NCBI GenBank assembly: GCA_048883405.1
Contig: JBHLQS010000002.1
Span: 1-62,607, forward strand
Length of the DNA stretch: 62,607 nucleotides
Origin: Candidatus Thorarchaeota archaeon
GTDB taxonomy: Archaea > Asgardarchaeota > Thorarchaeia > Thorarchaeales > Thorarchaeaceae
Direction: 5' to 3'
Shown in pieces: positions 13,894-61,859 of the stretch. A program made the translations under genes and the position numbers. Positions within the stretch are counted from its first letter, which is position 1. Each line of letters begins with the position of its first letter. The notes under the pieces are model-generated. The model was not told where the DNA came from. It ran no database searches and saw only the letters and a list, made by a program, of their open reading frames with translations.

Positions 13894-13935
13894 GAATGCT
13901 AAAGTGGAAACGCCGCTCGGACAGGACGACCAGAC

Positions 13936-16412: not shown

Positions 16413-16427
16413 AGAGGTGTTATTCAG

Positions 16428-16670: not shown

Positions 16671-17107
16671 TGACAGAGGAGCAACAGAATCACCTTCAGA
16701 AACTCTACGTGCAACAACAACTTGCTGAGTCCAACCTGAATACACTCCGACAGCAGATCGAATTGACACAGGTCATTCTAAATCAGTATCAAAATGGTTT
16801 TGCCGTGCTAAAGGAGCTCGAGAACAGGAAAGAAGGCGAAGAAACACTGCTCAATGTTGGAGGAGGCATCTTCGTGCAAGCAAAACTGATAGATACCTCC
16901 AGAGTGACGAGAGCTCTTGGGAGTGGAGTCAGAATCGAGCAGAGTCTTGAACAAGCCATTGAAGGAGTCGAAAAAGCCATCGAGAGTCTCGGTAAACAAT
17001 ATGAAAGCCTTCTTTCCGAACTAGGAAAGCTTGCCAGCCAGTCAGAAGCGATTGATACACAGATGAGACAACTGGCGACCCAGATGCAGGGCCAGGGGGC
17101 ACAGTAG
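16670..17107 (+). CDS. pfdA: prefoldin alpha subunit
   Basis: Coiled-coil / beta-hairpin / coiled-coil layout (LLNVGGGIFVQAKL). Conserved neighbourhood. Confidence 0.8.
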   Translation: MTEEQQNHLQKLYVQQQLAESNLNTLRQQIELTQVILNQYQNGFAVLKELENRKEGEETLLNVGGGIFVQAKLIDTSRVTRALGSGVRIEQSLEQAIEGVEKAIESLGKQYESLLSELGKLASQSEAIDTQMRQLATQMQGQGAQ

Positions 17108-17108
17108 G

Positions 17109-18017
17109 TTGTTTGAGAAGCTCCGGGGTGCCATGGACTCTGCGGTCACCAAAGCCACCACAAAGGAGCTAAACGAAAAGAACCTTGTAGATGCCGTATG
17201 GGACCTTCAGATGATCCTAATTCAGAACGATGTTGCAGTAGACGTTGCTGAACATATATGTAACCTGACCAAGGAGAAACTGATTGGGACACGAGCCGGT
17301 CGTCTTGAGAAGACCGGTAAACTGTTCAGAACTGCAATCTATGAGTCAATAATGGAAGTCTTGACACCTGAACACCCACTTGATCCAATTCAGTTCGCCT
17401 CTGACAAGAAGGCAAAAGGAGAACCCACCGTGATTCTGTTTGTGGGTGTAAACGGGACTGGAAAGACGACTACATTAGCGAAGTTGGCGAATCTCTACAA
17501 GAAGAACGGTTTTTCCGTTGTTATCGCAGCTGGAGATACATTCCGCGCTGGAAGCATTGAACAGCTTGAAGAACATGCGAATAGGCTTGGAATTCGAGTC
17601 ATCAAGCAGAATTATGGCTCTGATGCGGCAGCTGTAGCATATGATGCGATATCCCATGCCCGGGCAAAAGGGATTGACATTGTTTTGATAGACTCCGCTG
17701 GTAGAATGCAGAGTAACAAGAACCTCATCTCTGAGATGCAGAAGATTGCAAGAGTCGCAGAACCAGACTTGAAGATCTTCGTGGGTGATGCGCTTGCAGG
17801 AAATGATGCACTTTCTCAAGCAAAAGAGTTCAATGATGCCATTGAGATCGATGGAACCATTCTGACCAAGGTAGATGCGGACCCCTCTGGTGGCGCAGCG
17901 CTTTCAGTGGCTTTTGTTACCGGTCGACCTGTGATCTATATTGGAGTTGGCCAGAGCTACGATGACCTACGCAAGTTCGAGCCTGGGTGGTTTGCACAGA
18001 GACTCGTAGCGGATTAA
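17109..18017 (+). CDS. ftsY: signal recognition particle receptor FtsY
   Basis: GVNGTGKTTT, DTFRAGSIEQL, IDSAGR, TKVDAD, GVGQSYDDL (SRP GTPase G1-G5). TTG start. Confidence 0.95.
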   Translation: MFEKLRGAMDSAVTKATTKELNEKNLVDAVWDLQMILIQNDVAVDVAEHICNLTKEKLIGTRAGRLEKTGKLFRTAIYESIMEVLTPEHPLDPIQFASDKKAKGEPTVILFVGVNGTGKTTTLAKLANLYKKNGFSVVIAAGDTFRAGSIEQLEEHANRLGIRVIKQNYGSDAAAVAYDAISHARAKGIDIVLIDSAGRMQSNKNLISEMQKIARVAEPDLKIFVGDALAGNDALSQAKEFNDAIEIDGTILTKVDADPSGGAALSVAFVTGRPVIYIGVGQSYDDLRKFEPGWFAQRLVAD

Positions 18018-20000: not shown

Positions 20001-20082
20001 GCGGTATTACCGTCGTAGTATTCCACTTTTTCTTAGGAGAATACACCGATATTAGCACGGAACTGAAGGTGTGATCAAGCTT

Positions 20083-21264
20083 ATGCATCCATTACTAGAA
20101 GAGGTCCTTCGTACTGTGCCAACTGGAAACCGTGACACACAAACTGGTAAACCCTCTAAGACGACTTCTGCGAAATCTGCCACGACTGACGAGGATTTAG
20201 CTAGTCTTCTAGAGTCAGTCAGCGCAAGAATACTCGTAGTTGGAGTTGGCGGTGCTGGTAACAATGCAGTAACACGATTGATGCAAGTTGGAGTAGAGGG
20301 AGCAGAAACACTTGCAGCTAACACGGATGCACAGGACCTCTATTTCTGCAACTCAAATCATAAGCTGCTTCTTGGGAGGGACACCTGTGGAGGGCTCGGA
20401 GCTGGAAACGACCCTGATATAGGTGAAGCTGCGGCTCTAGAAACATATGAGGTCATTAAAGATGTGATTCGAGGCGACCTTGTGTTCATAACCGCTGGGA
20501 TGGGCGGTGGAACAGGAACAGGAGCTGCACCGCTCATTGCCAAAGCCGCACAAGAAAATGGTGCTCTGACAGTGGCTATTGTTTGTTTGCCATTTGAAGT
20601 TGAGGGTGATACAAGAAGGCGTAATGCACAGCGTGGTCTCAATGCAATCATGGAACACGTGGACACCCTGATAGCCATACCTAATGAGAAACTCCTAGAG
20701 ATTGCACCAGACCTTTCACTCCCTGAGGCCTTCATGGTAGCAGATGAGGTCCTGGTGAGAGCTGTAAAGGGCATCGCGGAATTGATCTCAAAGCCTGGAC
20801 TTGTGAACCTGGACTTTGCTGATGTCCGTACAACGATGAAGAATGGTGGCGTTTCAATCATCGCACTTGGCGAGGGAGAGGGAGAGAACAGAGCGGAAGA
20901 TGCTGTAATCAATGCTTTGAGGAACCCCTTGATCGAAGTTTCAATTGAGAACGCGCGTAACATTCTTGTCAATGTCAGTGGCAGCACTGACCTTCAGTTG
21001 TCTGAGGCAAAGCAAGTCGTACAACTGGTGACTGAGCAAGTGAATCCTGGAGTTGAGATAATCTATGGTGCATTAATCGATCCAGAACTTGAGAATCGAA
21101 TTCGTGTGACCATTATTGCATCTGGTGTGAACTCTCCATACGTTTTCGATAAGACTGAGAGAGTAATGCCTTTAGCAGATGACCTCAAGACGGGCTTGGG
21201 ACTTCAGAGGTTGGATGAATCCGACGTGGACAATCAGGAAGGATTAAAAGAAGACGCGGACTGA
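20083..21264 (+). CDS. ftsZ: cell division GTPase FtsZ
   Basis: VVGVGGAGNNAV, AGMGGGTGTGAAP (tubulin signature), NLDFADV. ATG 20083 with GAAGGTG upstream; GTG 20071 is an alternative. Confidence 0.95.
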   Translation: MHPLLEEVLRTVPTGNRDTQTGKPSKTTSAKSATTDEDLASLLESVSARILVVGVGGAGNNAVTRLMQVGVEGAETLAANTDAQDLYFCNSNHKLLLGRDTCGGLGAGNDPDIGEAAALETYEVIKDVIRGDLVFITAGMGGGTGTGAAPLIAKAAQENGALTVAIVCLPFEVEGDTRRRNAQRGLNAIMEHVDTLIAIPNEKLLEIAPDLSLPEAFMVADEVLVRAVKGIAELISKPGLVNLDFADVRTTMKNGGVSIIALGEGEGENRAEDAVINALRNPLIEVSIENARNILVNVSGSTDLQLSEAKQVVQLVTEQVNPGVEIIYGALIDPELENRIRVTIIASGVNSPYVFDKTERVMPLADDLKTGLGLQRLDESDVDNQEGLKEDAD

Positions 21265-21574: not shown

Positions 21575-22252
21575 TTGGAGCCAAAAAGCAGCATTTACGC
21601 GGTTCGTACTACTATAGGACAGGAGAAGGGCGTTACAGACCTCATAACCACTGCAGTCATAGGTGAAACAGATGTCTGGGCGTGTCCTTTCTGTTCTGAG
21701 GAGTTTTCTTCCAAGAAAGCTACCCTAGAGCACATGAAAAGCTGCAAGAAGAAGAAAAAGAAGACAGGAGAGCCCAAATTGGTATCCACCAACCAGCTTC
21801 TGGGACGTGTCAAGGCAATTCTGGTACCTGAAACTCTTCGAGGCTATGTTTTTCTCGAAACCCTGGAATTCAGAGATGTGGAGATTGCTATTTCTGGTGT
21901 ACCTCATGTTAGAGGCCGTGTAGGTGGTAAGGTCAGCTTTGATGAGATTGACAAGTTCCTAGTGCCAAAGCCAGCCGCTGAAGGGATTTCAACAGGAGAT
22001 GTTGTAGAGATCATTTCTGGACCATTCAAGGGAGAGCGAGCCAAGGTAGCACGAGTGGATGCGGCAAAAGAGGAACTCATTCTGGAGCTGTTGGACAGCC
22101 CACACACTATTCCCATACGTGTCCACGCAGACTTTGCCAAAATAGTTGAGAAAGCACATCGTGAGGAAGAGGCTGAGGTCGCTGAGGAAGAAGAGGGCTT
22201 AGCTAAAGAGAAAGATGGTGATTTGGAAGACGACTCTTTCTGGGCTCAATAG
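21575..22252 (+). CDS. spt5: transcription elongation factor Spt5 (NusG) with zinc-finger insertion and acidic tail
   Basis: NGN (IYAVRTTIGQEKGV…LRGYVFLE…VRG) and KOW (GDVVEIISGPFKGERAKV). ~45-aa insert CPFCSEEFSSKKATLEHMKSCKKKKKK; C-terminal EEEAEVAEEEEG…. Confidence 0.9.
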   Translation: MEPKSSIYAVRTTIGQEKGVTDLITTAVIGETDVWACPFCSEEFSSKKATLEHMKSCKKKKKKTGEPKLVSTNQLLGRVKAILVPETLRGYVFLETLEFRDVEIAISGVPHVRGRVGGKVSFDEIDKFLVPKPAAEGISTGDVVEIISGPFKGERAKVARVDAAKEELILELLDSPHTIPIRVHADFAKIVEKAHREEEAEVAEEEEGLAKEKDGDLEDDSFWAQ

Positions 22253-22478
22253 ACAGCTTGATCCTTCCATCCACTCCAAAACGCTTAAAACATTCTAGAT
22301 ATGCGGTCGAGTCATCTCCTTAATTGGACATAGACGCAAGACGTCGTGTCTGGGGTGAAGAAAGTGACAATGAATGCAGTAGACCGAGCTGGACAGAGTA
22401 CTACTTGTGCCGGTAGGTCGACCATAATCGGGGTGTCTGAGGACCCGCCGGGATTACTGCATCAGGAGTTGTGAAGAA

Positions 22479-22985
22479 TTGAGCGAAACTAAGCCAATTA
22501 TTGTAGAGGCAATGGTAGAAGGTGGCAAAGCATCCGGAGGACCACCAATTGGGCCAGCTCTTGGACCTACAGGTGTCAACATATTCCAAGTCGTCACCAA
22601 GATCAATGAGGTCACTGAAGCCTATGCTGGTCTCAAAGTACCTGTGAAAATCACTGTCAACCCAAATGACAAGAGCTTCACAGTTGATGTGGGAACTCCA
22701 CCTACTAGCGCACTGATCTTGAAAGAAATTGGTCAACCAAAGGGCTCGGGTGAGCCAAACACAAACATCATCGGGAACCTCACCATTGACCAGCTAAAGT
22801 CAGTTGCAAAGGGTAAAGCGAGTGACATCTCCGCGCTTAGCATGAAGAGTGCAGCTTTGATTGTATCTGGCACCTGTGTTTCAATGGGTGTCACTGTGGA
22901 AGGAAAGACAGCTAAGGAGTTCCAGCAGGAAGTCAAAGATGGTGTCTGGGACAGCCAGCTGGACGAACCGCTCAGGGAGGGCTAA
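22479..22985 (+). CDS. rpl11: 50S ribosomal protein uL11
   Basis: GGKASGGPPIGPALGPTGVN…PPTSALILKE. Confidence 0.95.
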   Translation: MSETKPIIVEAMVEGGKASGGPPIGPALGPTGVNIFQVVTKINEVTEAYAGLKVPVKITVNPNDKSFTVDVGTPPTSALILKEIGQPKGSGEPNTNIIGNLTIDQLKSVAKGKASDISALSMKSAALIVSGTCVSMGVTVEGKTAKEFQQEVKDGVWDSQLDEPLREG

Positions 22986-22988
22986 TCT

Positions 22989-23651
22989 ATGTCGGTCAAA
23001 GTTGAACCCATAGAGGCCGCAGTCGCTGAGGCGAGGAAACTGGGAACGACAAAGAAAAGGAAGTTCAAGCAGAGCTTTGATGTTGCTGTCAACTTCAGAA
23101 AGAAGGAACTTGATGTTACCAAGCCAGAGAATCGATTCAATCAGGAGGTTGTGCTCCCTAATGCGATGTTTCCACCTGCAAAAGTATGCGCCTTTGGCGA
23201 TGGTGAGTTCGCGGAAAATGCCACGGCTGCTGGAGTTCAGAGAGTCGTGTCAAAGGACGAAATCCCAAAGCTTGGCGATGAGAAGAAGGAGAGAAAGGCC
23301 TTAGCAAAGGGCTTCGACTTCTTCATTGCAGCAGTAGACGCGATGCCCCTCGTGGGTCGTTACCTAGGACAGGCATTGGGGCCCAGAGGGAAGATGCCAA
23401 GACCTTTCCCACCACAAGCAGACCTCGGTCCTGTGGTAGAGCAGTATCAACGGACTGTCCGAGTAAGGATGAGGAACACTCCAACTTTCCACGTCAAGGT
23501 TGGTCATGTAAACATGGCTGACAAAGAGATTGCTGACAACATTGCGGCAGTTCTGAGCTTCGTGGACAGCAAAGGATTCCTGGACCGCGTCGGTAGCGTG
23601 CTCGTCAAGAGCACAATGGGACCAACAGTCAAAGTACCAATCGAGAGGTGA
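22989..23651 (+). CDS. rpl1: 50S ribosomal protein uL1
   Basis: FKQSFDVAVNF… GKMPRPFPP… VRVRMRNTPTFHVKVGH. Confidence 0.95.
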   Translation: MSVKVEPIEAAVAEARKLGTTKKRKFKQSFDVAVNFRKKELDVTKPENRFNQEVVLPNAMFPPAKVCAFGDGEFAENATAAGVQRVVSKDEIPKLGDEKKERKALAKGFDFFIAAVDAMPLVGRYLGQALGPRGKMPRPFPPQADLGPVVEQYQRTVRVRMRNTPTFHVKVGHVNMADKEIADNIAAVLSFVDSKGFLDRVGSVLVKSTMGPTVKVPIER

Positions 23652-24667
23652 TTGAAACGTCAGTTTACGAGAAAACAATTCCACAATGGAAACTTGACAA
23701 AGTGGCTGAGCTCGCCGCCCGAATTGACGGGAGCGGGATGATTGGTCTTGTGAATGTGGAGGGTGTTGGAGCTAGGCAACTCTCGGGAATCAGAGAGAGC
23801 CTGAGAGGCTCGGCCACTATGATGATGGCACGGAATACACTGATGATTAGGGCTCTTGAAGCAGCTAAGAAGAAGGGAATAAAGGATCTCATAGAGCATG
23901 TCACAGGCCCTGTAGCCTTCATGTTCAGCAATCAGGACCCATTCGTTCTGACAAAGTTCCTTGGTGAGAACAAGGCTGCGGCACCAGCCAAAGGCGGTCA
24001 GATTGCACCAAAGGACATCATTGTTCCAGCCATGAATACGGGTGTTGCTCCTGGTCCATTCATCAGCGAGCTGGCTGCATTGAAGATTCCAGCTCGGGTA
24101 AAAGGAGGAGTCATTCATATCACTGATGACACCGTTGCTGTTAAGGCTGGAGATGTGATCTCAAACGCTATGGCGCAGATGTTAACAAGACTGGGAATCG
24201 AACCCATGGAACTCCAGCTGAAGCTCATAGCAGCATATGCTGATGGAGCGGTAATGATTGGTGACAGTCTTGAGATTGACCTGAGTGGTCTGTTGTCACA
24301 GGTCATAGCAGGACACCAGTACGCGGTCAATCTTTCGATAAACATCGGATACCCCACGGTAGAAACGATGCCAATGCTGCTTGCTAAGGCTAGTATTGAA
24401 GCCAAGAGACTGACTATGGAGATAGGCTTCTTCGAGCCAGATATGATTGGCGAGTTCTTAGCCAAGGCAAACTCAGAAGCGTTTGCGCTTGCAGCAATAA
24501 TCTCTGAGAAAGACCCAGACGCAATATCCTCCGAAGCCCTTAGCCAAGTTCAGGCTGCTGCTGCGTCAGCTACAGTGGCTCCAACAGAGGAGCCAGAGAA
24601 ACCTGAGGAGGTTGAGAAGGAAGAGGAGGAGGAAGAAGTTGCAGGCCTCGGCGGCCTGTTTGGATAA
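23648..24667 (+). CDS. rplP0: 50S ribosomal stalk protein P0 (uL10)
   Basis: IPQWKLDKVAELA…; C-terminal EEPEKPEEVEKEEEEEEVAGLGGLFG. GTG start overlaps the uL1 stop. Confidence 0.95.
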   Translation: MIETSVYEKTIPQWKLDKVAELAARIDGSGMIGLVNVEGVGARQLSGIRESLRGSATMMMARNTLMIRALEAAKKKGIKDLIEHVTGPVAFMFSNQDPFVLTKFLGENKAAAPAKGGQIAPKDIIVPAMNTGVAPGPFISELAALKIPARVKGGVIHITDDTVAVKAGDVISNAMAQMLTRLGIEPMELQLKLIAAYADGAVMIGDSLEIDLSGLLSQVIAGHQYAVNLSINIGYPTVETMPMLLAKASIEAKRLTMEIGFFEPDMIGEFLAKANSEAFALAAIISEKDPDAISSEALSQVQAAAASATVAPTEEPEKPEEVEKEEEEEEVAGLGGLFG

Positions 24668-38922: not shown

Positions 38923-40464
38923 TTATGCGTCTATACCTTCATGCTTTTGAAACATGCGCCATGATAGAGTCAACGTCTTGGGATGGGCTGCACGGTACTC
39001 ATCCAGATGGCGGACCGCAGTGGAATAAGGAGCGCCTTTGACCTTCTCGGGTTCTTTGTATGCTTCCTCAGATATCGTTCTGAAAGCAGATATGAGAACG
39101 TCCAGCTCTTGTTTTGACTCAGTTTCCGTTGGCTCTATCATCAGAGCCTCAGGAACAATCAACGGAAAGTATACGGTTGGTGCATGTACACCGAAATCCA
39201 GAAGTCGCTTCGCCACATTCATGGCTGACACTCCGGTTTCATCCAAAAGCTCTTCACCCGAGATAACGCACTCATGCATTCGAGGAGCGTCCTGCGAATA
39301 TGGAAGGCTAAAACCAGGTATAGCACTAACATGATGGGCAACATAATTAGCATTCAGGACTGCATTCTCAGCTACCGCACGAACGCCTCTTTTTCCGAGG
39401 GAATAGATGTAGGCATAAGTCCTCACCAACACTCCGAAATTCCCGAAATATCCATGGACTTTCCCTATTGTCTGAGGGCAATCATAGTTCCAGTCGAAGC
39501 GACCATCAGGATGTTTCACAATACGAGGAACCGGCATGAAGTCCACCAGCTCTTTCTTAACTCCAACAGCACCAGCACCTGGACCACCTCCACCATGCGG
39601 GGTGGAGAACGACTTGTGCAGGTTCATATGGACCACGTCAAAGCCCATATCTCCTGGCCGTGTTATGCCCATAATGGCATTCAAGTTGGCACCATCGTAG
39701 TACAGAAGTCCACCAGCATCATGGACAATGTCAGCGATCTCCTCGATGTCTTTCTCAAACACCCCTATTGTGTTGGGATTTGTTAGCATCAGTCCAGCCG
39801 TTTTTGGTCCTGATGCCGCTTTTAGAGCTTCAATATTCACAAGGCCATCTTCGCTGGATGGCACGACAACCACTCTGTAACCTGCCATAGCTGCTGATGC
39901 AGGATTTGTACCATGAGCCGCATCAGGAATAAGCATTTCATTGCGTTGCTCGCATTCTTCTGTGACGCATCTGTGATACTCACGAATCAGCATCACGCCT
40001 GTATATTCGCCTTGAGCCCCTGCTGCGGGCTGTAGTGTCACTGCATCCATGCCTGTGATTTCAGCCAACCACTGTTCTAGCTCCCACATCAGTTCAAGGG
40101 CACCCTGACTCGTTGAAGCATCCTGACTTGGATGAAGCCATGCGAATCCGTCAAGATTGGCAGCCCAGTCATTTATGACTGGATTGTACTTCATCGTACA
40201 GCTTCCGAGCGGGTATGTGCCTGTGGAAACGGAGAAATTCATCTGTGAGAGGCGGGTGAAGTGTCTGATGACCTGAAGCTCAGAAACCTCAGGAATTGCA
40301 GGTGGAGTCTTGCGCTGCATCTCCTTTGGAATAAGAGAGTGAATTTTCCCGACGGACTGCCTGATTTCAGCTTCAGCCTCAGGAAACTGATGACTGGTGG
40401 CTCCCAAACTCGACTTCTCGAATATTAGAGGCACATTCCAGCGGGCTTGGCGATATTCAGTCAT
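38923..40464 (-). CDS. gcvPB: glycine dehydrogenase (decarboxylating) subunit 2
   Basis: LGSCTMKYNP…, NLHKSFSTPHGGGGPGAG (PLP-lysine region). Confidence 0.9.
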   Translation of the reverse strand: MTEYRQARWNVPLIFEKSSLGATSHQFPEAEAEIRQSVGKIHSLIPKEMQRKTPPAIPEVSELQVIRHFTRLSQMNFSVSTGTYPLGSCTMKYNPVINDWAANLDGFAWLHPSQDASTSQGALELMWELEQWLAEITGMDAVTLQPAAGAQGEYTGVMLIREYHRCVTEECEQRNEMLIPDAAHGTNPASAAMAGYRVVVVPSSEDGLVNIEALKAASGPKTAGLMLTNPNTIGVFEKDIEEIADIVHDAGGLLYYDGANLNAIMGITRPGDMGFDVVHMNLHKSFSTPHGGGGPGAGAVGVKKELVDFMPVPRIVKHPDGRFDWNYDCPQTIGKVHGYFGNFGVLVRTYAYIYSLGKRGVRAVAENAVLNANYVAHHVSAIPGFSLPYSQDAPRMHECVISGEELLDETGVSAMNVAKRLLDFGVHAPTVYFPLIVPEALMIEPTETESKQELDVLISAFRTISEEAYKEPEKVKGAPYSTAVRHLDEYRAAHPKTLTLSWRMFQKHEGIDA

Positions 40465-41879
40465 TGCTTGCCACCTCCACTGGTGACGATTTGTTCGATG
40501 GCATCCACAAGCTCGTCAATTGCATCCTTCGTATGGATTTCTGTGAAGCATACAAGCATGGATTCGCCGAGATCAGGAAAGTCCGAGGACAGGATTTTGC
40601 CTCCATGAATTCCTCGGTCCAAAAGACCTTGATGAACCGATTGAGCAGAAACACCATCAGTAAAGGATACCACGAATTCCTTCCAAAAGGAAGCACCGAT
40701 TGAGGGAGCCTGCACACAAGATAGTGCGTTCAGCTTGTTGGCAGCATAGTGTGATTTGTAGGCAATGGCTTCTCCAAGTTCTCTGAAGCCATCTGGGCCC
40801 AGTAATGATGTATCGATAGCAGCAGTGACAGCAATAAGTGCCTGATTGGAGCAAATGTTGCTTGTAGCTTTCTCCCTGCGTATGTGCTGTTCGCGGGGAC
40901 TTAGTGTCAGGACAAATCCGCGTTTGAACGGTTCTTCAGAAGTCCTCGTCATTCCCACAAGCCGACCTGGCAATTGACGGATTAGCTTCATGTCATCGAT
41001 ACAGCCGAATATCCCAAGAAGAGGACCGCCATACGACATGGGGGACCCCAAGCCCTGTCCCTCCGCAACAACAATGTCTGCTCCATAGTCGCCAGGTGGG
41101 CGCAATATGCCCATTGACATTATGTCTACTCCTGCAATCAGTAGAGCATCTGCGTCATGCACCAGCTCATTGATTTTGTCAACATTTGCCTCTATGAATC
41201 CGAGATAGCCAGGATTCTCTAGATACACTCCTGCAACCTTCTCGCTTAGTTTCGACTTGAGATCGGCAATGTCCATCTGTCCGCTCGCTCTGTCATAGTC
41301 TATCTTCTCGACCTCTATACCAAGAGGCTCTGCATAGGTGTTGATGACTCTCCAATGAACTGGATTAATGGTGCCTGGAACCAGGACTCGGCTACGCTTC
41401 TTTTTCACTCGAACACTCATCAGGACAGCTTCAGCAAGGGCGCTCGCCATGTCATACATGCTGCTATTAACAACATCAATCTCTAGCAGCTCAGACATCA
41501 GACTCTGATATTCAAAGAGGGTCTGCAGCATCCCTTGGCTGATTTCCGGTTGGTAGCTTGTATATGAGGTGACAAATTCTGACCGCCCTGCTAGAGCCCT
41601 TGTAGCTGACGGTATGTAGTGCATACCAAGTCCGTCACCAAGAAACACCCTCCCACTGTCCGCAGGCTTATTCTTGTCCGCAAGCTCGTGCATCCTTCGT
41701 GCCACTTCGATTTCTGTATGAGACTCCGTGATAGTCAAACCACGGTTGAGTCTGAACTTCTCAGGGATATTCGAGAAGAGCTCATCAAGACTCTTCTTCC
41801 CTATCGATTTGAGCATCTCCTTTTTCGCTTCTTCAGTCAACGGAAGCCACGGATGTTTAAAGTCCATAGATGGGCCCAC
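40461..41879 (-). CDS. gcvPA: glycine dehydrogenase (decarboxylating) subunit 1
   Basis: SYTSYQPEISQGMLQTLFEYQS…; ATSNICSNQAL. 4-nt overlap with gcvPB. Confidence 0.9.
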   Translation of the reverse strand: MGPSMDFKHPWLPLTEEAKKEMLKSIGKKSLDELFSNIPEKFRLNRGLTITESHTEIEVARRMHELADKNKPADSGRVFLGDGLGMHYIPSATRALAGRSEFVTSYTSYQPEISQGMLQTLFEYQSLMSELLEIDVVNSSMYDMASALAEAVLMSVRVKKKRSRVLVPGTINPVHWRVINTYAEPLGIEVEKIDYDRASGQMDIADLKSKLSEKVAGVYLENPGYLGFIEANVDKINELVHDADALLIAGVDIMSMGILRPPGDYGADIVVAEGQGLGSPMSYGGPLLGIFGCIDDMKLIRQLPGRLVGMTRTSEEPFKRGFVLTLSPREQHIRREKATSNICSNQALIAVTAAIDTSLLGPDGFRELGEAIAYKSHYAANKLNALSCVQAPSIGASFWKEFVVSFTDGVSAQSVHQGLLDRGIHGGKILSSDFPDLGESMLVCFTEIHTKDAIDELVDAIEQIVTSGGGKQ

Positions 41880-42445: not shown

Positions 42446-43291
42446 CTATTTCTCCTTAACACTGATTTCAGGAGAAGGGTCCACCTGTTGGACTCTGAAC
42501 AGTCTCTTGACCTGCGTTAGAACAAGACGATTCCCATTGACAAGCACATAGATTTCAATATAATCATGAAGTCCTGAGGTTGATATCTTCTTCTCGAGAA
42601 CTGCTTGGACCTGAAAGACCCCAGCCGGATTATCCATGACTACTGTTAATCGCAGGGGTTTGTCCCCCTTTTCGAGAATAACGTCATGGATGGCCATTGC
42701 ACTGACAGAGTGGATGTCGACCTTCCCCTTCTGGAACGGTATTATTGTACGACCTTTTGTCAGGTCGCAGCCGTCACCAAGCTTTGTGATACCAGCCTCA
42801 AATGTCAAACACTGTGTGTCGTCATCATGTGCGTAAATTCCGTGCGCAATGAAGCTCAGAATGTCGGTTGCTTTGGCAGGATCGTCATACATCTCAACCA
42901 ATTTGGATTCAAGGACGGGGATAGCCAAAGATAATGATGCCTGAGGATGTTCATTTCTATGCACAACCATACCTATGTCGTGGAGGTAGGTGGAGGCCAG
43001 CACGACAAGACGGGCATCATCAGTGTCGCCAATGCCTTCTGCCACAATGTTGGGCTGGAACGTTTCGTCTAAGATGTCAAAGGCCTTTAGTGCATTCCAT
43101 GTTGCTACTTCAGCATGAACATGTCCATGGTCTGTGTATCCTAGCCTAGAAACGGCCATCCTATTTGCAGTCCGAAGGTATGATTGGACTTTGGGAGAGC
43201 CAGCAAGATATTGATACATCTGCAAGGCTTTTGTATTCGGAGCCAAGAGCTCGCGGACGCTGACTTCATCACGATTGAGGAATTCTTTCAT
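42446..43291 (-). CDS. HD-domain metal-dependent phosphohydrolase
   Basis: TDHGHVHAEV … YLHDIGMVVHRNEH (H…HD motif). Confidence 0.7.
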   Translation of the reverse strand: MKEFLNRDEVSVRELLAPNTKALQMYQYLAGSPKVQSYLRTANRMAVSRLGYTDHGHVHAEVATWNALKAFDILDETFQPNIVAEGIGDTDDARLVVLASTYLHDIGMVVHRNEHPQASLSLAIPVLESKLVEMYDDPAKATDILSFIAHGIYAHDDDTQCLTFEAGITKLGDGCDLTKGRTIIPFQKGKVDIHSVSAMAIHDVILEKGDKPLRLTVVMDNPAGVFQVQAVLEKKISTSGLHDYIEIYVLVNGNRLVLTQVKRLFRVQQVDPSPEISVKEK

Positions 43292-43362: not shown

Positions 43363-46341
43363 CTAAAGGTCGCCGGCCTCCTCTTGGATGGTCAAAAGAG
43401 TACGGTCAATCGCACTTGTCGCTTTCTGAATCGTCTTGAGATAGTCTTGACGCGACTTTTCGAAGGCAACTCGACTGATTCGCTGCTTCTTCTTCCGAAG
43501 CAGAAGCTGACGAAGTCCTGCTTTCGCACCTTCAATCCGCTCGTTATGAAGCTCCAACTGAGACACCATATCACGGTATCTAGCACCGTGACTGGACAGC
43601 TCCTCTTTCACCTTAGGAAGATCAGAGTCAATCGTATCGAGCTGTGACTTGATGTCTCGCTCACGAATCATGAACTCCCTCTTCTTTACCTTGCCTCGCC
43701 TTCTTGCAGCTTCCAATTTCTCAAGGTCCATATTGAGGGCGGTCTTCCTGGAGTAGAGGTTTGCAAATTCGCGAAGTAGTTCTGGTGGGGCTCCGGTCTG
43801 TCGCTGCTCCTCGACTACATGGTCAGCCTCATCAAACTCACCTCCCTCAATATCTAGGCGCACGCCTCTATAGGAAACATAAGCAAGAGCTAGAAGACCT
43901 ACAATTGCAGTGAGAGCGAGTGGCCTTGCGGCGATGAGAGGGGATACCTGATACAGGAGCAGTATTTCTATTGGATTGTAGTTGGATGTGTTATACGTAT
44001 TATATCTCAGAGTTGTGTCAAATACGCCATACAATAGCCTGTATTCTCCGGAAACACTCAGGGTATTTACGGAATAGGGCAGAACTAAATCAACACGGTG
44101 ATGCTCGATCAAGACATCGTCAAGTGCTCCAAATGGAATATCGAGAAGATTGCCGCCAGCTGCGAGTTCTTCGTACTCGCTGATTTGAACTACGTATTCT
44201 ATGTTGAATTCGTAGGAATAGCCGGGCAGGAACTGCTGTGGCCCAAACCTGTCTTCCAAGAGGGTGATGCCTATCTGCCTAGAGACATTCCATTCGCCTT
44301 CTATCGTAAGTTGTGATTGAACCAACAAACCAACGCGGTCATAGACCTTGATATCTGTTGTATAGGCAGGTACTGTAAATGTAAGCTGACTCTCTGGTGA
44401 CAGCCCAATGTTGTCAATATGAATTGTTTCCTTATATGAGAGCCATTCCCAAGGATCTACTACGACGACTGTTGCACGATCAGCTACAATGTGCGGCGTG
44501 AAAGATCTGAAAGCATTGGTAAACTCCTCAATTGTGAGAGGAGCTAGATTTGATGCAGTGTAGTCCGGAGATGGATAGTTAGGAGACTGCGAGTCACCTG
44601 TACGATATGACATTGCGAGAGATGCGTGTCTGATGACGTAAGGCACCACTGGAAACTTTAGGAATGTGAATTCATATTCCTTGTCCGTGATGTGGATCAT
44701 AGTGTTCAGAGAGTGCATCTGCATTGTCACGGTGAATATGTAGGACTGCTCATAGTTGACTGACTGAGCGAAATGAATGCGCCAACGTAGCATTCCTTGC
44801 AGGTCTTGAAGGCGAACTACCTCTAGTTCAATACCGTTCTGGTCCGTTGCAGACACTGAAAGCAGGTGTGATTCCCACCCCATTGGAAGATACATCTCTA
44901 TTGCGGATATCACAGAAGAGCCGTTGTTTGTGACGGTGAACTTGTCCTTAACGCTGGTCCGCATGTATGACTCTGTGCCAATGGTTCTATCCACATCAAG
45001 TCGCATTCCAAGCAGAGGAATGAATGGTCGGTCCAGATTGAAGTCAACAGATGCAGTGCCGGTTGCATTTGTTGGATCTGTGGCATTGAACCAGATAGTA
45101 TGAGTGCCCTCTTTGTAGCTGGTCAGATCCAAACGAGCTTCCCAGAACGTGGTTTCCCGATTTAATACAAGGTCATTCCATGAGTCTTCATCATCGAATC
45201 GATATTGGACATTCTTTACTCGGGTGTTATCAGTGGCGTTGACCTCAATAGTTGCAATCCATGAGAGAGTTTCTCCAGAGGAGGGACTCTCTATGATAAG
45301 GGTAGGACCCGCATTTGGAACCAGCTGCATTCTTGGAGTCTCGGACCAGTAGGTGCGTAGAGTAGGAAGGTCAGCAGTGTTTTCTGTATTGCTGAACATG
45401 AAGATGAACGGGTACATGAAATCGGTGCTATTCAAGAGTGGTATGTCATCCGAATCTGTTGTATTCATAGCAATGATGTACTCTACTTGAGTAGTGGCGC
45501 CATCATCTGATGCATTAGCAGACAGTATTCTGCCTTGATTGGCATCGGCAATATGTTGGAGGGTACTCACCCCGTGTTCATCGCTGTATATGATCTGACT
45601 TGTGTCAGCAGGATTTGCTCTCCTTGTTATTCCTTCTCTAGTTATTCTTGTAAGAGTTATTTCATACTCAAGGTCGAGTCCATAGAGGTCGTGAGTCGGA
45701 TCAGTGTAGGCCTCATCTGCAGGAATTATGAAGTGACGCACCTCACCGATTCTCATTCCAAAGATTGATTCTCGATACATTGCAAGCGAGGGAAGATTGG
45801 CTAGCTCCTCTGCTGATTCGTCATCTGGAAAATCGCTTTCCTGTAGTATTGTACCGTTGGGAAGAGTAAGGATATAGTGAACGGTCACAGAGTCTGTGCC
45901 AATTGCCCTCCAGAATTCACCTGATGGAGTCCCAGGCGCATATCCAATGATTAGATCGCTGTTGTTCAACCCAGCTGTGGTGAAGCTATCTGTATAGTTC
46001 TGCCAGCCTACACCAATCCAGCCAGAAGTTGGAGCCTCTAGTCCGAGATAGAGATTCGTATCATTATGTTCCATATACGCCATTATACCAGTCACAGGAT
46101 CTGTATAGTTGGATGCATATTCCCAAGGGTCAATAATCCCGTCAGCAGCTCCATAGTGTTGGTCCGTAAATGCAACTGATACAATGTTCGAGGACTCAGC
46201 CACTGAGCTTAGCTGCGTCGCATCATGAGCCATATTGTTAGAGTCCCATGTTCCTGTTGAGGGAACCAAAGCGAGGACGCCACTTGTTAAAAAGAGCGCC
46301 ACTATCGCGATTGTCCCTATCCGTCTATGCAGCAGGCTCAA
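43363..46341 (-). CDS. large surface glycoprotein: signal peptide, DOMON-like, FKBP-like, ribophorin-I-like region, TM, cytoplasmic coiled coil
   Basis: Signal/TM IGTIAIVALFLTSGVLAL. FKBP-like VTVHYILTLPNGT…GMRIGEVRHFIIPADEAY. Many N-x-S/T sequons. C-terminal half, TM (LALTAIVGLLALAYVSYRGVRLD) and ~170-aa K/R/E coiled coil mirror RPN1/Ost1 architecture. Confidence 0.45.
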   Translation of the reverse strand: MSLLHRRIGTIAIVALFLTSGVLALVPSTGTWDSNNMAHDATQLSSVAESSNIVSVAFTDQHYGAADGIIDPWEYASNYTDPVTGIMAYMEHNDTNLYLGLEAPTSGWIGVGWQNYTDSFTTAGLNNSDLIIGYAPGTPSGEFWRAIGTDSVTVHYILTLPNGTILQESDFPDDESAEELANLPSLAMYRESIFGMRIGEVRHFIIPADEAYTDPTHDLYGLDLEYEITLTRITREGITRRANPADTSQIIYSDEHGVSTLQHIADANQGRILSANASDDGATTQVEYIIAMNTTDSDDIPLLNSTDFMYPFIFMFSNTENTADLPTLRTYWSETPRMQLVPNAGPTLIIESPSSGETLSWIATIEVNATDNTRVKNVQYRFDDEDSWNDLVLNRETTFWEARLDLTSYKEGTHTIWFNATDPTNATGTASVDFNLDRPFIPLLGMRLDVDRTIGTESYMRTSVKDKFTVTNNGSSVISAIEMYLPMGWESHLLSVSATDQNGIELEVVRLQDLQGMLRWRIHFAQSVNYEQSYIFTVTMQMHSLNTMIHITDKEYEFTFLKFPVVPYVIRHASLAMSYRTGDSQSPNYPSPDYTASNLAPLTIEEFTNAFRSFTPHIVADRATVVVVDPWEWLSYKETIHIDNIGLSPESQLTFTVPAYTTDIKVYDRVGLLVQSQLTIEGEWNVSRQIGITLLEDRFGPQQFLPGYSYEFNIEYVVQISEYEELAAGGNLLDIPFGALDDVLIEHHRVDLVLPYSVNTLSVSGEYRLLYGVFDTTLRYNTYNTSNYNPIEILLLYQVSPLIAARPLALTAIVGLLALAYVSYRGVRLDIEGGEFDEADHVVEEQRQTGAPPELLREFANLYSRKTALNMDLEKLEAARRRGKVKKREFMIRERDIKSQLDTIDSDLPKVKEELSSHGARYRDMVSQLELHNERIEGAKAGLRQLLLRKKKQRISRVAFEKSRQDYLKTIQKATSAIDRTLLTIQEEAGDL

Positions 46342-46498
46342 TCCAAATCACCGTGATTCAGTAGGGTTCGCGGTATACTGTCTACTATATAGGCCGCGAA
46401 CGATGCGCTCGAACCTCTGGACTCGTTAAATAGGTTTCGTCATGCGAATCGTTGTACCACTGCATTCTTCTATCCGAAAGTGTAAAAAAGGGCTGTAG

Positions 46499-47551
46499 TT
46501 GTGCCCGGCAAAGGAGAAAGCCCAATTGCTGACCATCCTCATCGGTATCATTCTTGCATTCTTGATAGTACTCTTTACAATGCCTAGCACAATCCGAATC
46601 CTAAAAGAAAAAGGCATAGTAGGAGTGGACGTCCATAAATCCAACAAGCCAGAGGTGCCGAAAGGTGGCGGGTTTGTATTTCTGTTTGCGATGGTAGCCT
46701 CTTTACTAATCGTGATTGGAATAACAACCTTTCAGGGTCAAGAAGTCGATACAGGACTCTTAGCTGCACTGGTTTCAATCCTCCTCGCAGGAATGATTGG
46801 GCTACTGGATGATAGTCTTGACTTCAAGAATAGGACTAAGATAGCACTCCCAATGCTTGCATCAATCCCAATGATGGCCATGCAGGTAGGTACCACCACA
46901 ATGTCAATTCCATTTATTGGGACTGTTGACCTTGGCGTGCTCTATCCCCTCGTGGTCATTCCTCTGATGATGACATTCATCATCGACTCCACTAACATGT
47001 ATGGAGGAATGAATGGCTTAGAAACAGGCCTCTCGGCAATCAACTCTGCAGCTCTTATTCTCTATGTGGTGCTCCTATCACTCACTGATGGAATTGAGAC
47101 CACACAGGCACTTCTTGACTCAGGAGTAGTTGCTGGAGCGCTTCTTGGTGCATCCATTGCATTTCTCATTTTCAACAGATATCCCGCAAGGATACTGCCT
47201 GGAGACGTTGGAAGACTTCCAATGGGTGCAGCCATAGCTACAGCACTTATCTTAGGAAACATGGACAGACTAGCCATTTTCCTTTATGCGCCATTTGGTC
47301 TCAATTTCCTCCTATACATCTTTTATAGACTCTATGTACACCGCAGAGGAATCGAATATGTGAAGTTTGCCAGTCCAAGAGAAGACGGCACTCTCGAAGT
47401 CGAGGGTCCGTTCACCATGTACTGGGTGCTGCCATACCTTTCAGAAAATGTAACAGAGAAGAGCAACGTTGCTCTGTTGATACTGCTGCAGGCAATCATT
47501 GCCTTTGGTGCAGTGTTCCTGCTGGTATTCTCTGGAATGATATTAGCGTAG
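46499..47551 (+). CDS. aglH: UDP-GlcNAc:dolichyl-phosphate GlcNAc-1-phosphate transferase (GT4 / MraY-Alg7 family)
   Basis: GLLDDSLDFKNRTK, IDSTNMYGGMNGLETG, PGDVGRLPMG. About 10 TM segments. Confidence 0.8.
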   Translation: MCPAKEKAQLLTILIGIILAFLIVLFTMPSTIRILKEKGIVGVDVHKSNKPEVPKGGGFVFLFAMVASLLIVIGITTFQGQEVDTGLLAALVSILLAGMIGLLDDSLDFKNRTKIALPMLASIPMMAMQVGTTTMSIPFIGTVDLGVLYPLVVIPLMMTFIIDSTNMYGGMNGLETGLSAINSAALILYVVLLSLTDGIETTQALLDSGVVAGALLGASIAFLIFNRYPARILPGDVGRLPMGAAIATALILGNMDRLAIFLYAPFGLNFLLYIFYRLYVHRRGIEYVKFASPREDGTLEVEGPFTMYWVLPYLSENVTEKSNVALLILLQAIIAFGAVFLLVFSGMILA

Positions 47552-60452: not shown

Positions 60453-61859
60453 TCACATAACGAGCTCGCCGCGCGCTCTCGCATCTCGGAGCATGATAGC
60501 CCTTCTCCGCCGTCTATCAATGGTCCACTTCCATATGCCAATTGCAATTCCTGTAAGGGCTGCGAGACCAATCACCCCCAGAAATGTGTACAGACCAAAT
60601 GGAAAATGCACGAAGAAATCCGGAAGCGGCCCTGTTATTAGATACGGCCAGTTCACAATAACTCCAAATGCATAGAGAAAGCCCACGATTGTCAGCTCCT
60701 TTAGATAGCCGACCTTGTGTTCATCATCTTCAAAGAGGAATATTGCGGGACCCAACCAAAACAGGTACCAGGGCATTTCCCATCTGAACACAAAGAGAAT
60801 TGCGGGGAGCATGTAGATGTAGAACGGCTTCAAGAGATTGATTTTACCCAAAAAAGATGCATCGCGAAAAGCCTCACTGTCAGGAAGATAGAGACGAATA
60901 GTAGACAGCATGAAGGCGGCATATATCAGAAGCGGAATTAGAGCGGGCGGCCATGGATAGCTGCTAATGACTGTGCTGTTTTCTATAATTGGAGAGGCTA
61001 TGAATAGACCAGGGTACATTGGGTTCACTACATATGAGCTATAGGTGGAAGTGTTCAGGAAATGATTCAGCAATGAGCTGAAGTCAGCGCCTAGAAACAG
61101 AAATGGAATGACTGTTAGCAGCATAGATGCAACGAACCAGATGAGGGACACAGGTGCTGCAAGGAACATTATTGGAAGGGCAACCACCGAATAGATCTTG
61201 GTCTGGACCGATAGACCCAGTGCAAACATTGCCTTTCCATATTGTTTTTCCTGAAGAAGAACCAGTGACATGAGAAGGAGACAGTCTACAATTGGCTCGA
61301 GCTTACCTCCACCTGCTGACATAATCAGGCCATAGACATAGTATCCAGCGAAGAACATGCGTGCCCATTGGTTCTTGAAAATACGATCACCGAGAAGAAT
61401 TGCAACCAAGACAAGATTCAGATTGAACACAAGAGTCAGTAGGAAGTTAAGCCACAAGGGCTGTAAGCCACCCTGCCCAGGGAAGAGCCAAGTGGCTATA
61501 GAGAAGAAGACTAGACCGAATACGGGGTACTCATAGGTGATGTTGCCCAAATAGTCAGGAAGCACATGTAAGCCATCATTATATCCCCATTCTGGTGGAA
61601 GGGCTGCCGCCAGTTCATGGTCGTTCATCTCATAGACTTGGAATCCATATATCCAGAAAGCCTCACCGTACATCTCGTTTCGATTACGGTCGCGTTCTAT
61701 GACCAAGTAATTGGCGAAGGGGATAGCAATCATTGAGATTACTAAGCTCAGCACAAGCTCTCTACGGAATCGCCAGATTGTGATTGAGATTGCGCGGAGC
61801 ATTTTTGTTTCCACCAGCATCTTCAGTCGCACGATAGGATGGCGGCTGCTCGAGACCAT
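60453..61859 (-). CDS. polytopic membrane protein (possibly a GT-C-type glycosyltransferase)
   Basis: 468 aa, more than 10 hydrophobic segments. No catalytic motif confidently recognised. Confidence 0.4.
   Translation of the reverse strand: MVSSSRHPIVRLKMLVETKMLRAISITIWRFRRELVLSLVISMIAIPFANYLVIERDRNRNEMYGEAFWIYGFQVYEMNDHELAAALPPEWGYNDGLHVLPDYLGNITYEYPVFGLVFFSIATWLFPGQGGLQPLWLNFLLTLVFNLNLVLVAILLGDRIFKNQWARMFFAGYYVYGLIMSAGGGKLEPIVDCLLLMSLVLLQEKQYGKAMFALGLSVQTKIYSVVALPIMFLAAPVSLIWFVASMLLTVIPFLFLGADFSSLLNHFLNTSTYSSYVVNPMYPGLFIASPIIENSTVISSYPWPPALIPLLIYAAFMLSTIRLYLPDSEAFRDASFLGKINLLKPFYIYMLPAILFVFRWEMPWYLFWLGPAIFLFEDDEHKVGYLKELTIVGFLYAFGVIVNWPYLITGPLPDFFVHFPFGLYTFLGVIGLAALTGIAIGIWKWTIDRRRRRAIMLRDARARGELVM

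Follow-up and report, generated by a model that had tools for sequence, protein, structure and literature searches.

OST1/ribophorin I is a eukaryote-like accessory subunit of the oligosaccharyltransferase (OST) and translocon supercomplex for protein N-glycosylation. An earlier note on the window (the whole stretch of 62,607 nucleotides of Candidatus Thorarchaeota DNA analysed here) pointed to a protein whose C-terminal part would run parallel to human RPN1, preceded by DOMON-like and FKBP-like modules. This raises two questions: is this protein a genuine OST1, and what might its N-terminal extension be for? We find that the gene is in all probability a Thorarchaeia orthologue of OST1/ribophorin I with a long-form architecture; its features are collected in Table 1.

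Table 1. Features of the OST1 locus, in window coordinates.
Feature	Position	Strand	Basis
HD-like gene, 281 aa, 71 nt downstream of OST1 gene	42446..43291	-	weak HD/phosphohydrolase matches only
Probable long-form OST1/ribophorin I gene	43363..46341	-	992 aa, TTG start
Cytosolic four-helix bundle (aa ~853-989), net charge +10	43375..43785	-	AF2 and 8whn_A match
Single transmembrane helix (aa ~801-823)	43873..43941	-	hydropathy scan and AF2
OST1/ribophorin I extracytoplasmic core, two beta-sandwich domains (aa ~446-799)	43945..45006	-	AF2, Foldseek, profile
Big_7 Ig-like domain (aa 346-416)	45094..45306	-	PF17957, E 4.1e-12, 47 bits, above cut-off
C-terminal half of possibly DOMON-like beta-sandwich (aa ~238-335)	45337..45630	-	AF2 strands, DOMON profile alignment
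FKBP-like domain (aa ~143-236), remodelled pocket, apparently inserted in beta-sandwich	45634..45915	-	FKBP_C, family profile
N-terminal half of possibly DOMON-like beta-sandwich (aa ~45-141)	45919..46209	-	AF2 strands, spliced DOMON matches
Predicted signal peptide	46252..46341	-	basic n-region MSLLHRR and hydrophobic residues 7-30, hydropathy scan
Divergent intergenic region, 157 nt	46342..46498		GGTGAT Shine-Dalgarno of OST1 gene at 46347-46352 (-)
GT4 polyprenyl-phosphate HexNAc-1-P transferase, AglH/Alg7-like, 350 aa	46499..47551	+	PF00953, E 4.2e-28

The window protein carries a genuine OST1/ribophorin I

Of 23 orthologous loci inspected, 21 have the TTG start codon and its upstream Shine-Dalgarno sequence. 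The product is a type I membrane protein: beyond the predicted signal peptide, the hydropathy scan gave one further hydrophobic segment (residues 799-823), in agreement with the single transmembrane helix claimed in the earlier note, followed by a K/R/E-rich tail of 169 residues (35 K+R, 31 D+E) where about 170 had been announced. In public databases the protein is annotated as 'Ig-like domain-containing protein' or 'hypothetical protein'.

A Pfam search of the window protein itself, which the earlier note had suggested as a check, returned neither Ribophorin_I (PF04597) nor DOMON at E <= 1, and both assignments rest on orthologs, profiles and structure. Structure prediction followed by Foldseek comparison with RPN1/Ost1, also suggested there, was carried out as well. 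The AF2 model has a pLDDT of about 90 over the OST1 core and places the transmembrane-region helix at model residues 377-402 (residues 806-831 of the protein). When this model, built for residues 430-992, was searched against the PDB, human RPN1 and yeast Ost1 occupied all of ranks 1-8, with E-values from 1.1e-28 to 4.8e-19 and TM-scores normalised to the target (TMt) of 0.51-0.68; the first different fold came at E 4.7e-8, more than 10 orders of magnitude away. At the sequence level, phmmer linked the OST1 region to about 280 relatives of 550-620 residues, several of which exceed the Pfam Ribophorin_I threshold, and a Ribophorin_I match is present in 8 of 37 orthologs of the long form. A family profile (A5) combining the OST1 region of the window protein (~446-989) with 52 short archaeal relatives matched human RPN1 over its full length (E 3.1e-47), yeast Ost1 (E 3.3e-26) and 8WHN, the cytosolic domain of the OST1 of Lokiarchaeon MK-D1 (E 8.9e-49). 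Residues ~446-989 are thus a genuine OST1/ribophorin I, as the block-by-block parallel to RPN1 had led one to expect. Fold and domain order, including the transmembrane helix and, in the case of RPN1, also the bundle of cytosolic helices, are those of RPN1 and Ost1 in solved OST complexes (PDB 6S7O, 8B6L, 6EZN, 6C26), but pairwise identity is only 13-15%, the window protein has its N-terminal extension and it resides in the archaeal cell membrane instead of the ER.

These data also bear on the idea of a generic Ig-repeat S-layer protein or adhesin superficially resembling ribophorin I, or of a chimeric gene call. The public annotation and the missing direct Ribophorin_I match would both fit such an origin, which is nevertheless effectively refuted by the Foldseek gap, the full-length profile match to RPN1 together with a tail homologous to 8WHN, and the recurrence of the complete 1-992 architecture in about 70 independent assemblies.

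The earlier note had described the cytoplasmic tail as a coiled coil. The AF2 model instead shows four helices, and the tail matches 8whn_A both as a single sequence (E 5.8e-5) and as a profile (E 1.4e-7): it is a four-helix bundle, a homologue of the domain through which MK-D1 OST1 and human RPN1 bind ribosomes, and no other part of the protein is as conserved (74-88% column identity). The MK-D1 domain binds ribosomes, and the signal peptide of the same protein works in human cells (PMC11417166). MK-D1 OST1 (Prometheoarchaeum syntrophicum, WP_147663064.1, 607 aa) and the window protein share a signal peptide, two beta-sandwich ectodomains, a single transmembrane helix and, on the cytosolic side, a basic bundle of four helices, and differ in the ~400 additional N-terminal residues of the latter, made up of an FKBP domain, apparently within a possibly DOMON-like sandwich, followed by Big_7.

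The N-terminal extension is specific to the class and conserved

The full-length long form (query residues 1-992, 46-92% identity) was recovered, with the same genes alongside, from about 70 Thorarchaeota species genomes and from one deeper lineage whose ribophorin-I core region is 32% identical, whereas other Asgard OST1s (Loki, Odin and other lineages) have about 550-620 residues and lack the extension. Since, in addition, residues 81-320 exceed the OST1 core in conservation, the FKBP pocket is fixed and sequons are retained, the extension is real, class-specific and under selection. Asgard OST1 itself was already well known, and the novelty claimed earlier narrows to the N-terminal fusion; we found no description of an OST1 with an FKBP/DOMON-like/Ig extension in the literature that could be searched.

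The degenerate FKBP proposed earlier was borne out. On the window protein, Pfam FKBP_C aligns with residues 149-217 (E 6e-4) at 20.5 bits, 0.6 bits under the 21.1-bit cut-off; it is present in 35 of the 37 orthologs (best E 4.7e-11), and all ten of those checked individually scored above the cut-off. The family profile further matches FKBP2 (2pbc) over residues 143-234 (E 3e-5). The domain is remodelled but conserved: D37 is replaced by Q or E, R42 by P and F46 by S, with a shortened 80s loop (near FKBP12 residues 87-91), but Y26 and Y82 are invariant and all 37 of 37 orthologs carry Y for W59, Y for F99 and L for I56. The deeper lineage has kept a canonical FKBP (E 2e-13), nearest to MtFKBP17 (1ix5, E 2.4e-12) and including the archaeal bulge. 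Judged by sequence, the Thorarchaeal FKBP thus derives from the archaeal short-type FKBPs, of which MtFKBP17 (PDB 1IX5) and MjFKBP26 (3PR9) are the best relatives of the deeper-lineage insert. Those proteins are chaperones that occur free in the cytosol and carry an IF (insert-in-flap) domain, whereas the FKBP of the long form has no such domain and sits outside the cytoplasm, nested within another domain; its bulge, D37 and R42 have moreover been lost in crown Thorarchaeota.

According to the AF2 model, this FKBP appears to be inserted inside a beta-sandwich and not placed in tandem with it, because DSSP orders six strands before it and five to six after it, and because DOMON matches bridge the junction only once the FKBP is excised, the DOMON profile then aligning across both halves from position 12 to position 116 of its 124. 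That this sandwich is DOMON-like, as claimed in the earlier note, is possible. PF03351 is the only recurrent Pfam family for it, found in 9 of 20 members with the FKBP spliced out (best E 5e-5), all matches being below threshold (best E 3e-5 to 5e-5 overall). Foldseek of the N-terminal model returned generic Ig/FnIII matches only, comparison with PDB sequences gave no support for DOMON, and hhalign against the cellobiose dehydrogenase cytochrome domain (1D7B) aligned 26 columns at 1.7% probability. The two folds are alike as beta-sandwiches, with about 11-12 predicted strands here, and the DOMON hallmark motif is shared (...TSGWIGVGW...NNSDLIIGY... against ...ASKWIGIALGGAMNNDLLLVAW...); across the family, the N-terminal half reads HYGxADGIIDPxEY...LYxGLEAxTSGWIGxxWQ...NNSDLIxGY. 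The difference is that the sandwich here is interrupted by the 95-residue FKBP insert. The Big_7 domain is an addition to the earlier note.

The density of N-x-S/T sequons remarked on earlier is real: the ectodomain has 14, compared to 7.5 +/- 2.4 in composition shuffles, and 11 of these are retained in at least 26 of the 37 orthologs. About 12 lie within the extension, where they are mostly conserved, with 8 to 16 per ortholog.

Possible role of the extension

In other proteins, DOMON domains are binders of heme or sugars. It is conceivable, though in our view doubtful, that the protein is an OST1 orthologue whose extension has nothing to do with nascent chains, being either a glycosylated spacer or envelope module, which might for example bridge the gap beneath the S-layer, or a DOMON that binds heme or sugar and serves in redox chemistry or adhesion. 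The Ig-like Big_7 spacer and the heavy, conserved sequon load, typical of exposed envelope domains, would suit such a function, and the loss of the catalytic-type residues D37, R42 and F46 together with the shortened 80s loop could have left the FKBP as a mere structural relic. The invariance of the pocket aromatics in 37 orthologs and a conservation exceeding that of the OST1 core argue, on the contrary, for a retained binding function, and the deeper lineage has preserved its canonical FKBP.

We tentatively favour a role in handling nascent chains or glycans, by analogy with human FKBP11, which sits beside OST-A on ribosome-bound translocons and whose pocket serves protein binding and not catalysis (PMC12804085). 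With FKBP11 (PDB 9N9J/9YGY), too, a lumenal FKBP is kept beside OST through a single-pass membrane protein whose cytosolic segment is basic and binds ribosomes. Because FKBP11 acts in trans as a polypeptide of its own, whereas the Thorarchaeal FKBP belongs in cis to the OST1 chain itself and is of archaeal short-type origin, the resemblance is probably an analogy by convergence and not orthology. In the proposed mechanism, the tail would dock a translating ribosome beside SecYEG at the archaeal cell membrane and the OST1 core would flank AglB, with the glycosylated N-terminal module projecting outward from the membrane-distal end of OST1. The aromatic FKBP pocket, devoid of the catalytic-type D37 and R42, and the DOMON-like sandwich, maybe lectin-like, could then bind nascent chains or their glycans, or hold on to them, as the chains emerge, making the module a built-in chaperone or adaptor that need not be a prolyl isomerase. 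The divergent AglH-like gene would provide the first step of lipid-linked glycan synthesis.

Gene neighbourhood

The divergent Alg7/AglH-type neighbour reported earlier was recovered as such. It has the GT4 family domain of AglH/Alg7 (DPAGT1) GlcNAc-1-P transferases, and its best solved relative is human DPAGT1/Alg7 (E 6e-16, 62 bits), but the lead over MraY (4e-13, 52 bits) is small, and its substrate and lipid carrier are putative. Its sequence displays DDxxD and NGLE-type motifs, the latter being a mark of the GPT type (Alg7/DPAGT1-type transferases). Its adjacency to the OST1 gene is retained throughout Thorarchaeota, wherever a related locus includes that flank. This adjacency may be historical rather than functional, because the pair lies within a long conserved housekeeping synteny block (TopoVI, RIO1, NMD3) and is absent in Odinarchaeia, where the OST1 gene has no glycosylation neighbour.

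No gene for AglB/STT3, Ost3/6 or Sec turned up anywhere in the window, nor at a distance of up to 10 kb from the OST1 gene in 79 related loci; STT3 has been reported as universal (PMC10307638). We infer from homology that the window protein physically associates with an OST. The lack of a nearby AglB and the Odinarchaeal arrangement could, along with the strong conservation of the cytosolic bundle and ribosome binding by its homologue, be read differently, the protein being mainly a ribosome receptor and general SecYEG/TRAP translocon accessory that would offer all secreted proteins an extracytoplasmic foldase, largely independently of AglB and glycosylation. We consider this improbable, as all eukaryotic complexes solved so far contain the homologous fold as an integral subunit of OST (6s7o, 6ezn, 6c26) and the AglH-like partner is conserved throughout Thorarchaeota. 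On the other side of the OST1 gene, the HD-like gene directly follows in every locus that includes this flank (70-96% identity) and is possibly co-transcribed with it.

The C-terminal region of the long-form protein is OST1/ribophorin I

OST1/ribophorin I is among the 'eukaryotic signature proteins' cited for a eukaryote-like ribosome-translocon-OST machine in Asgard archaea, and its function is poorly understood, in eukaryotes included. The C-terminal 560 aa of the 992-aa protein encoded in the window are OST1/ribophorin I. When the protein was scanned directly with Pfam and NCBIfam, Ribophorin_I (PF04597) was not matched, and the identity claimed for it in the earlier note was therefore tested by other routes. 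PF04597 did match 8 of the 37 orthologs, with a best E of 5.5e-8. An exhaustive phmmer search with the OST1 region returned 281 relatives, mostly of 550-620 aa, with matches beginning at residue ~20-60; E-values against the short archaeal relatives ranged from 1e-41 to 1e-20, and four of the six short relatives tested, namely P0132, P0133 (Odinarchaeial), P0134 and P0137, passed the Pfam Ribophorin_I threshold. A profile built from the OST1 region of the window protein and 52 short archaeal relatives (profile A5) aligned to human RPN1 over nearly its full length (E 3.1e-47), to yeast Ost1 (E 3.3e-26) and to 8WHN, the cytosolic domain of OST1 from the Lokiarchaeon MK-D1 (E 8.9e-49). When the profile was made of the 37 full-length orthologs, it reached 8WHN and FKBPs among the PDB sequences and did not reach RPN1, short-form relatives being needed to bridge from the window family to RPN1. 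By sequence comparison, then, the OST1 region of the window protein is homologous to RPN1/Ost1.

An AlphaFold2 model of residues 430-992, computed from a 37-sequence alignment (pLDDT 86.9), exhibited a pair of beta-sandwich domains, one long TM helix and four further long helices. Ranks 1 to 8 of a Foldseek search of the PDB were occupied exclusively by RPN1/Ost1 (E 1.1e-28 to 4.8e-19, TMt 0.51-0.68), from human OST-A/B (8b6l_O, 6s7o_E, 8pn9_E and 6s7t_E) and from yeast (7oci_A, 6ezn_A, 8agb_E and 6c26_1). The next fold, that of integrin, followed at E 4.7e-8. The modelled fold is that of OST1, with two beta-sandwiches, one TM helix and a cytosolic helical bundle, and together with the match of profile A5 to RPN1 these eight top ranks bear out the assignment proposed earlier. 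Asgard archaea have been known to possess OST1 since 2017, and structural studies of it exist (PMC10307638, PMC11417166); the core as such is therefore not a new finding.

The tail of the window protein alone matched 8WHN with an E of 5.8e-5. Like its counterpart in human RPN1, whose topology it shares, the 8WHN domain is a bundle of four helices; in pull-downs it binds ribosomes (PMC11417166). The earlier note had placed a cytoplasmic coiled coil at this end of the protein: the tail is present, but in view of the homology to 8WHN and of the ribosome pull-down by that domain we read it as a four-helix bundle and, by homology to the MK-D1 domain, therefore as a putative ribosome-docking domain. 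This bundle (aa ~853-989) carries a net charge of +10 and is the most conserved stretch of the protein.

Gene model, topology and sequons

The OST1 gene and its GT4 neighbour, which is AglH/Alg7-like, were recovered as two divergent ORFs with the coordinates and spacing reported before (see table). Of the 23 orthologous loci that were inspected, 21 have the TTG start of the OST1 gene, and in 20 of these 23 loci the motif GGTGAT lies 5-7 nt 5' of it, so that the gene model appears sound. The conserved non-ATG start may serve translational tuning. In locus L075, which represents a deep lineage (proteins P0126/P0271), the OST1 start is ATG and not TTG.

A hydropathy scan of the window protein revealed just two hydrophobic segments (7-30 and 799-823). 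The predicted layout runs from a signal peptide through ~770 aa of ectodomain and a single TM helix to a basic tail of 169 aa; on hydropathy the predicted topology is type I, as in OST1/ribophorin I. The ectodomain contains 14 N-x-S/T sequons compared to 7.5 +/- 2.4 in shuffled sequences, 11 of them being kept in at least 26 of the 37 orthologs. Sequons number 8-16 per ortholog in the N-terminal 400 aa versus 3-4 in the OST1 core, where three sequon positions are invariant.

Coordinates and characteristics of features in the window
Feature	Position	Strand	Remarks
ORF without Pfam/NCBIfam match	848-1975	+	375 aa
ORF without Pfam/NCBIfam match	6341-7132	+	263 aa
Topoisomerase IB, eukaryotic-type	10526-12535	-	669 aa; Topoisom_I_N, catalytic core and C-terminal domain, E 1e-15 to 5e-58
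ORF without Pfam/NCBIfam match	13639-14160	-	173 aa
FtsY (SRP receptor)	17109-18017	+	
FtsZ	20071-21264	+	
Spt5-L11-L1-L10 cluster	21575-24667	+	
Glycine-cleavage P-protein genes	38923-41879	-	~1.5 kb from OST1
HD-like gene, function putative	42446-43291	-	281 aa; 71 nt 3' of OST1, same strand
OST1 gene	43363-46341	-	992-aa ORF, TTG start
TTG start of the OST1 gene with GGTGAT 5' of it	46339-46352	-	
GT4 gene	46499-47551	+	350-aa ORF, divergent from OST1 gene, 157-nt gap
ORF without Pfam/NCBIfam match	60453-61859	-	468 aa

A remodelled FKBP domain, predicted to lie within a DOMON-like sandwich

The N-terminal ~400 aa preceding the OST1 core form an extension that includes a Big_7 Ig domain (346-416, E 4e-12), a family detected in 21 of the 37 orthologs. 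FKBP_C (PF00254) was detected in 35 of the 37; in the window protein its match at 149-217 scored 20.5 bits, compared to a cut-off of 21.1, while 10 of the 10 orthologs checked individually passed this cut-off with 26.9-43.3 bits, and the FKBP of the deep lineage scored 50.8 bits (E 2e-13). The ortholog profile also matched FKBP2 with an E of 3e-5 over residues 143-234. On alignment to FKBP12, the pocket residues Y26 and Y82 are invariant, and all 37 orthologs share the substitutions W59->Y, F99->Y and I56->L. Further changes are D37->Q/E, R42->P, F46->S and F36->I/L, and the 80s loop is shorter than in FKBP12. The canonical FKBP12 pocket set (Y26, F36, D37, R42, F46, V55, I56, W59, Y82, F99) is thus not found in full. 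These comparisons predict that the FKBP fold is present and make membership of the PPIase enzymes doubtful. The domain is degenerate compared to canonical PPIases yet clearly under selection, its pocket being remodelled but fixed, in keeping with the 'degenerate FKBP' first noticed in the sequence.

The FKBP of the deep lineage is canonical, with D37, F36, V55 and I56 retained, and is closest to the archaeal short-type MtFKBP17, bulge included. The insert is therefore of archaeal FKBP descent, with later remodelling in crown Thorarchaeota. A kinship to the eukaryotic ER FKBPs, in which the Thorarchaeal domain would be ancestral to FKBP11, is disfavoured since the least-derived copy lies nearest to MtFKBP17.

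In the AlphaFold2 model of the N-terminal three-domain region (pLDDT 84.8, pTM 0.77), the segments ~45-141 and ~238-335 are all-beta according to DSSP, the FKBP being flanked by about 11-12 strands. After in-silico removal of the FKBP, DOMON alignments from Pfam ran across the junction (profile positions 12-116 of 124), which supports the predicted nesting of the FKBP inside a DOMON-like sandwich. DOMON was then the sole recurrent family, found in 9 of 20 sequences (best E 5e-5). Three orthologs, P0029, P0015 and P0060, matched DOMON after the excision and gave no DOMON match at E <= 0.01 when intact. Among intact sequences, DOMON (PF03351) was detected in 6 of the 37 orthologs (best E 3.2e-5), and the window protein, scanned directly with Pfam and NCBIfam, gave no DOMON match. 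Bit scores, shown for three matches, were 14.0-19.4 compared to a gathering score of 32.7, so that every match with a bit score shown fell below threshold. Foldseek on the three-domain model returned generic Ig, FnIII and cadherin matches only, with neither DOMON nor FKBP at the top; the profile of the FKBP-excised sandwich found nothing in the PDB, and its hhalign comparison to 1D7B (CDH cytochrome/DOMON-like; the sequence used was checked to be 100% identical) gave a 26-column motif match with 1.7% probability. Because the scores are sub-threshold and neither PDB, Foldseek nor hhalign searches confirmed the family, a DOMON identity is plausible and not established.

Distribution and annotation of the long form

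The closest relatives of the window protein are all from Thorarchaeota MAGs. The long form (query residues 1-992, 46-92% identity) occurs in about 70 species-representative genomes, all of which are Thorarchaeota or mislabelled relatives, and this architecture recurs in the far more divergent deep lineage, whose proteins measure 975-1000 aa and are 32% identical in the core. The N-terminal extension is lineage-specific. What is new here is this class-wide FKBP/DOMON-like/Ig extension of OST1, of which searches of the searchable literature (Thorarchaeota with FKBP; archaeal Ost1 with DOMON) returned no mention. Long-form proteins are publicly labelled 'FKBP-type peptidyl-prolyl cis-trans isomerase', 'Ig-like domain-containing protein' or 'hypothetical', and OST1 can therefore be missed in Thorarchaeota; the present finding corrects this annotation.

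Two shorter Thorarchaeal proteins, P0121 (608 aa, starting within the Big_7 domain) and P0124 (565 aa), represent long-form proteins cut short by gene calling or by a contig edge, and were rejected as true short OST1 paralogues. On a contig of 2.7 kb assigned to a 'Pirellulales bacterium' bin (L070, CAYTND010000390.1), an OST1 of Thorarchaeota type is accompanied by the HD gene, suggesting bin contamination. The orthologue in a MAG labelled Hermodarchaeota (L002, JBHLLF010000009.1) shares 88% identity with the window protein, suggesting an inconsistent taxonomic label. In L075 (GCA_053940065.1), an actin-family gene (15872-17017, plus strand) lies about 3 kb 3' of the long-form OST1, consistent with an Asgard origin.

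Possible role of the extension

The analysis demonstrates the OST1 fold and homology, a predicted type I topology, a ribosome-binding-type tail and a conserved, sequon-rich, FKBP-bearing extension. We propose a model in which OST1 would belong to the translocon of the cell membrane, its bundle docked on the ribosome and its core adjacent to AglB. The N-terminal module would be glycosylated and extend outward at the distal end of OST1; as a chaperone or adaptor it might bind chains as they emerge, or glycans. In a recent structure, human single-pass FKBP11 adjoins OST-A on translating ribosomes, its pocket binding protein and not isomerising (PMC12804085); entries 9N9J and 9YGY contain both RPN1 and FKBP11. 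The Thorarchaeal protein brings about a comparable arrangement within one polypeptide. This likeness is probably a convergence, because the Thorarchaeal FKBP is of archaeal origin.

A further reading, which we put forward tentatively and consider rather unlikely, is that the FKBP-fold module and a lectin-like DOMON sandwich, fused in cis to the ribosome-docking OST1, make up, in Thorarchaeia, an extracytoplasmic folding and quality-control station that catches nascent (glyco)proteins leaving SecYEG/AglB. It would be a convergent prokaryotic counterpart of the eukaryotic pairings of malectin with ribophorin I and of FKBP11 with OST-A, the latter reported in PMC12804085. If true, chaperone and lectin coupling to N-glycosylation would have arisen before, or independently of, the ER.

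The class-wide fusion of OST1 to an FKBP-fold module and a possible glycan-binding sandwich hints that, on the outer face of the archaeal OST, OST1 places modules for substrate handling beside the site of glycosylation, an idea recently raised for human FKBP11/CCDC134 at OST-A too. The long-form protein is also a source of soluble domains suited to biochemistry.

Gene neighbourhood and OST partners

The GT4 protein belongs to PF00953 (E 4.2e-28), and among its relatives of solved structure human DPAGT1/Alg7 scores best (E 6e-16, 61.7 bits), slightly ahead of the best MraY (3.7e-13, 52.5 bits). By this modest margin it appears closer to eukaryotic GPT (Alg7/DPAGT1-type) than to MraY/WecA, as the Alg7/AglH-type reading of the divergent neighbour had anticipated; its specificity for UDP-GlcNAc and dolichyl-phosphate is putative. 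The order TopoVI-A, GT4 divergent from OST1, HD-like gene was found at every locus with enough flank, the deep lineage included. In Odinarchaeia and relatives, a short OST1 lies beside GcvP genes and without GT4. The AglH-OST1 pairing is therefore Thorarchaeota-specific, within a long syntenic block, and GT4-OST1 adjacency was rejected as an ancestral state for Odinarchaeia, where OST1 adjoins GcvP.

Neither AglB/STT3 nor Ost3/6 was found in the window among all ORFs of at least 600 aa (topoisomerase IB, radical SAM, S9 peptidase and Cdc48) and the other real-looking ORFs of 150 aa or more. When the window and 79 related loci were scanned for the motif WWD[YWFN]G, no ORF with it emerged, and no AglB lies within 10 kb of the gene in the 79 loci.

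The HD-like gene was present in every related locus with flank (L001-L073) and is more conserved than OST1 (70-96% versus 46-92% identity); it may be co-transcribed with OST1. Glycine-cleavage P-protein genes lie near OST1 in the window, and in three Odinarchaeia-type contigs (L077, L078 and L079) they are directly beside the short OST1; this proximity looks like a remnant of an older OST1-GcvP synteny. The archaeal housekeeping genes around OST1 and GT4 comprise topoisomerase VI A and B, RIO1, a KH/Dim2-like protein, NMD3, Cdc48, glycine-cleavage P subunits, a Trm112-like protein, FtsY, FtsZ, Spt5, ribosomal L11/L1/L10, S19e and eIF6. FtsY is the only other translocation-related gene in the window. 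Four window ORFs had no Pfam/NCBIfam match (see table). The window also encodes a eukaryotic-type topoisomerase IB, an unusual enzyme for archaea.
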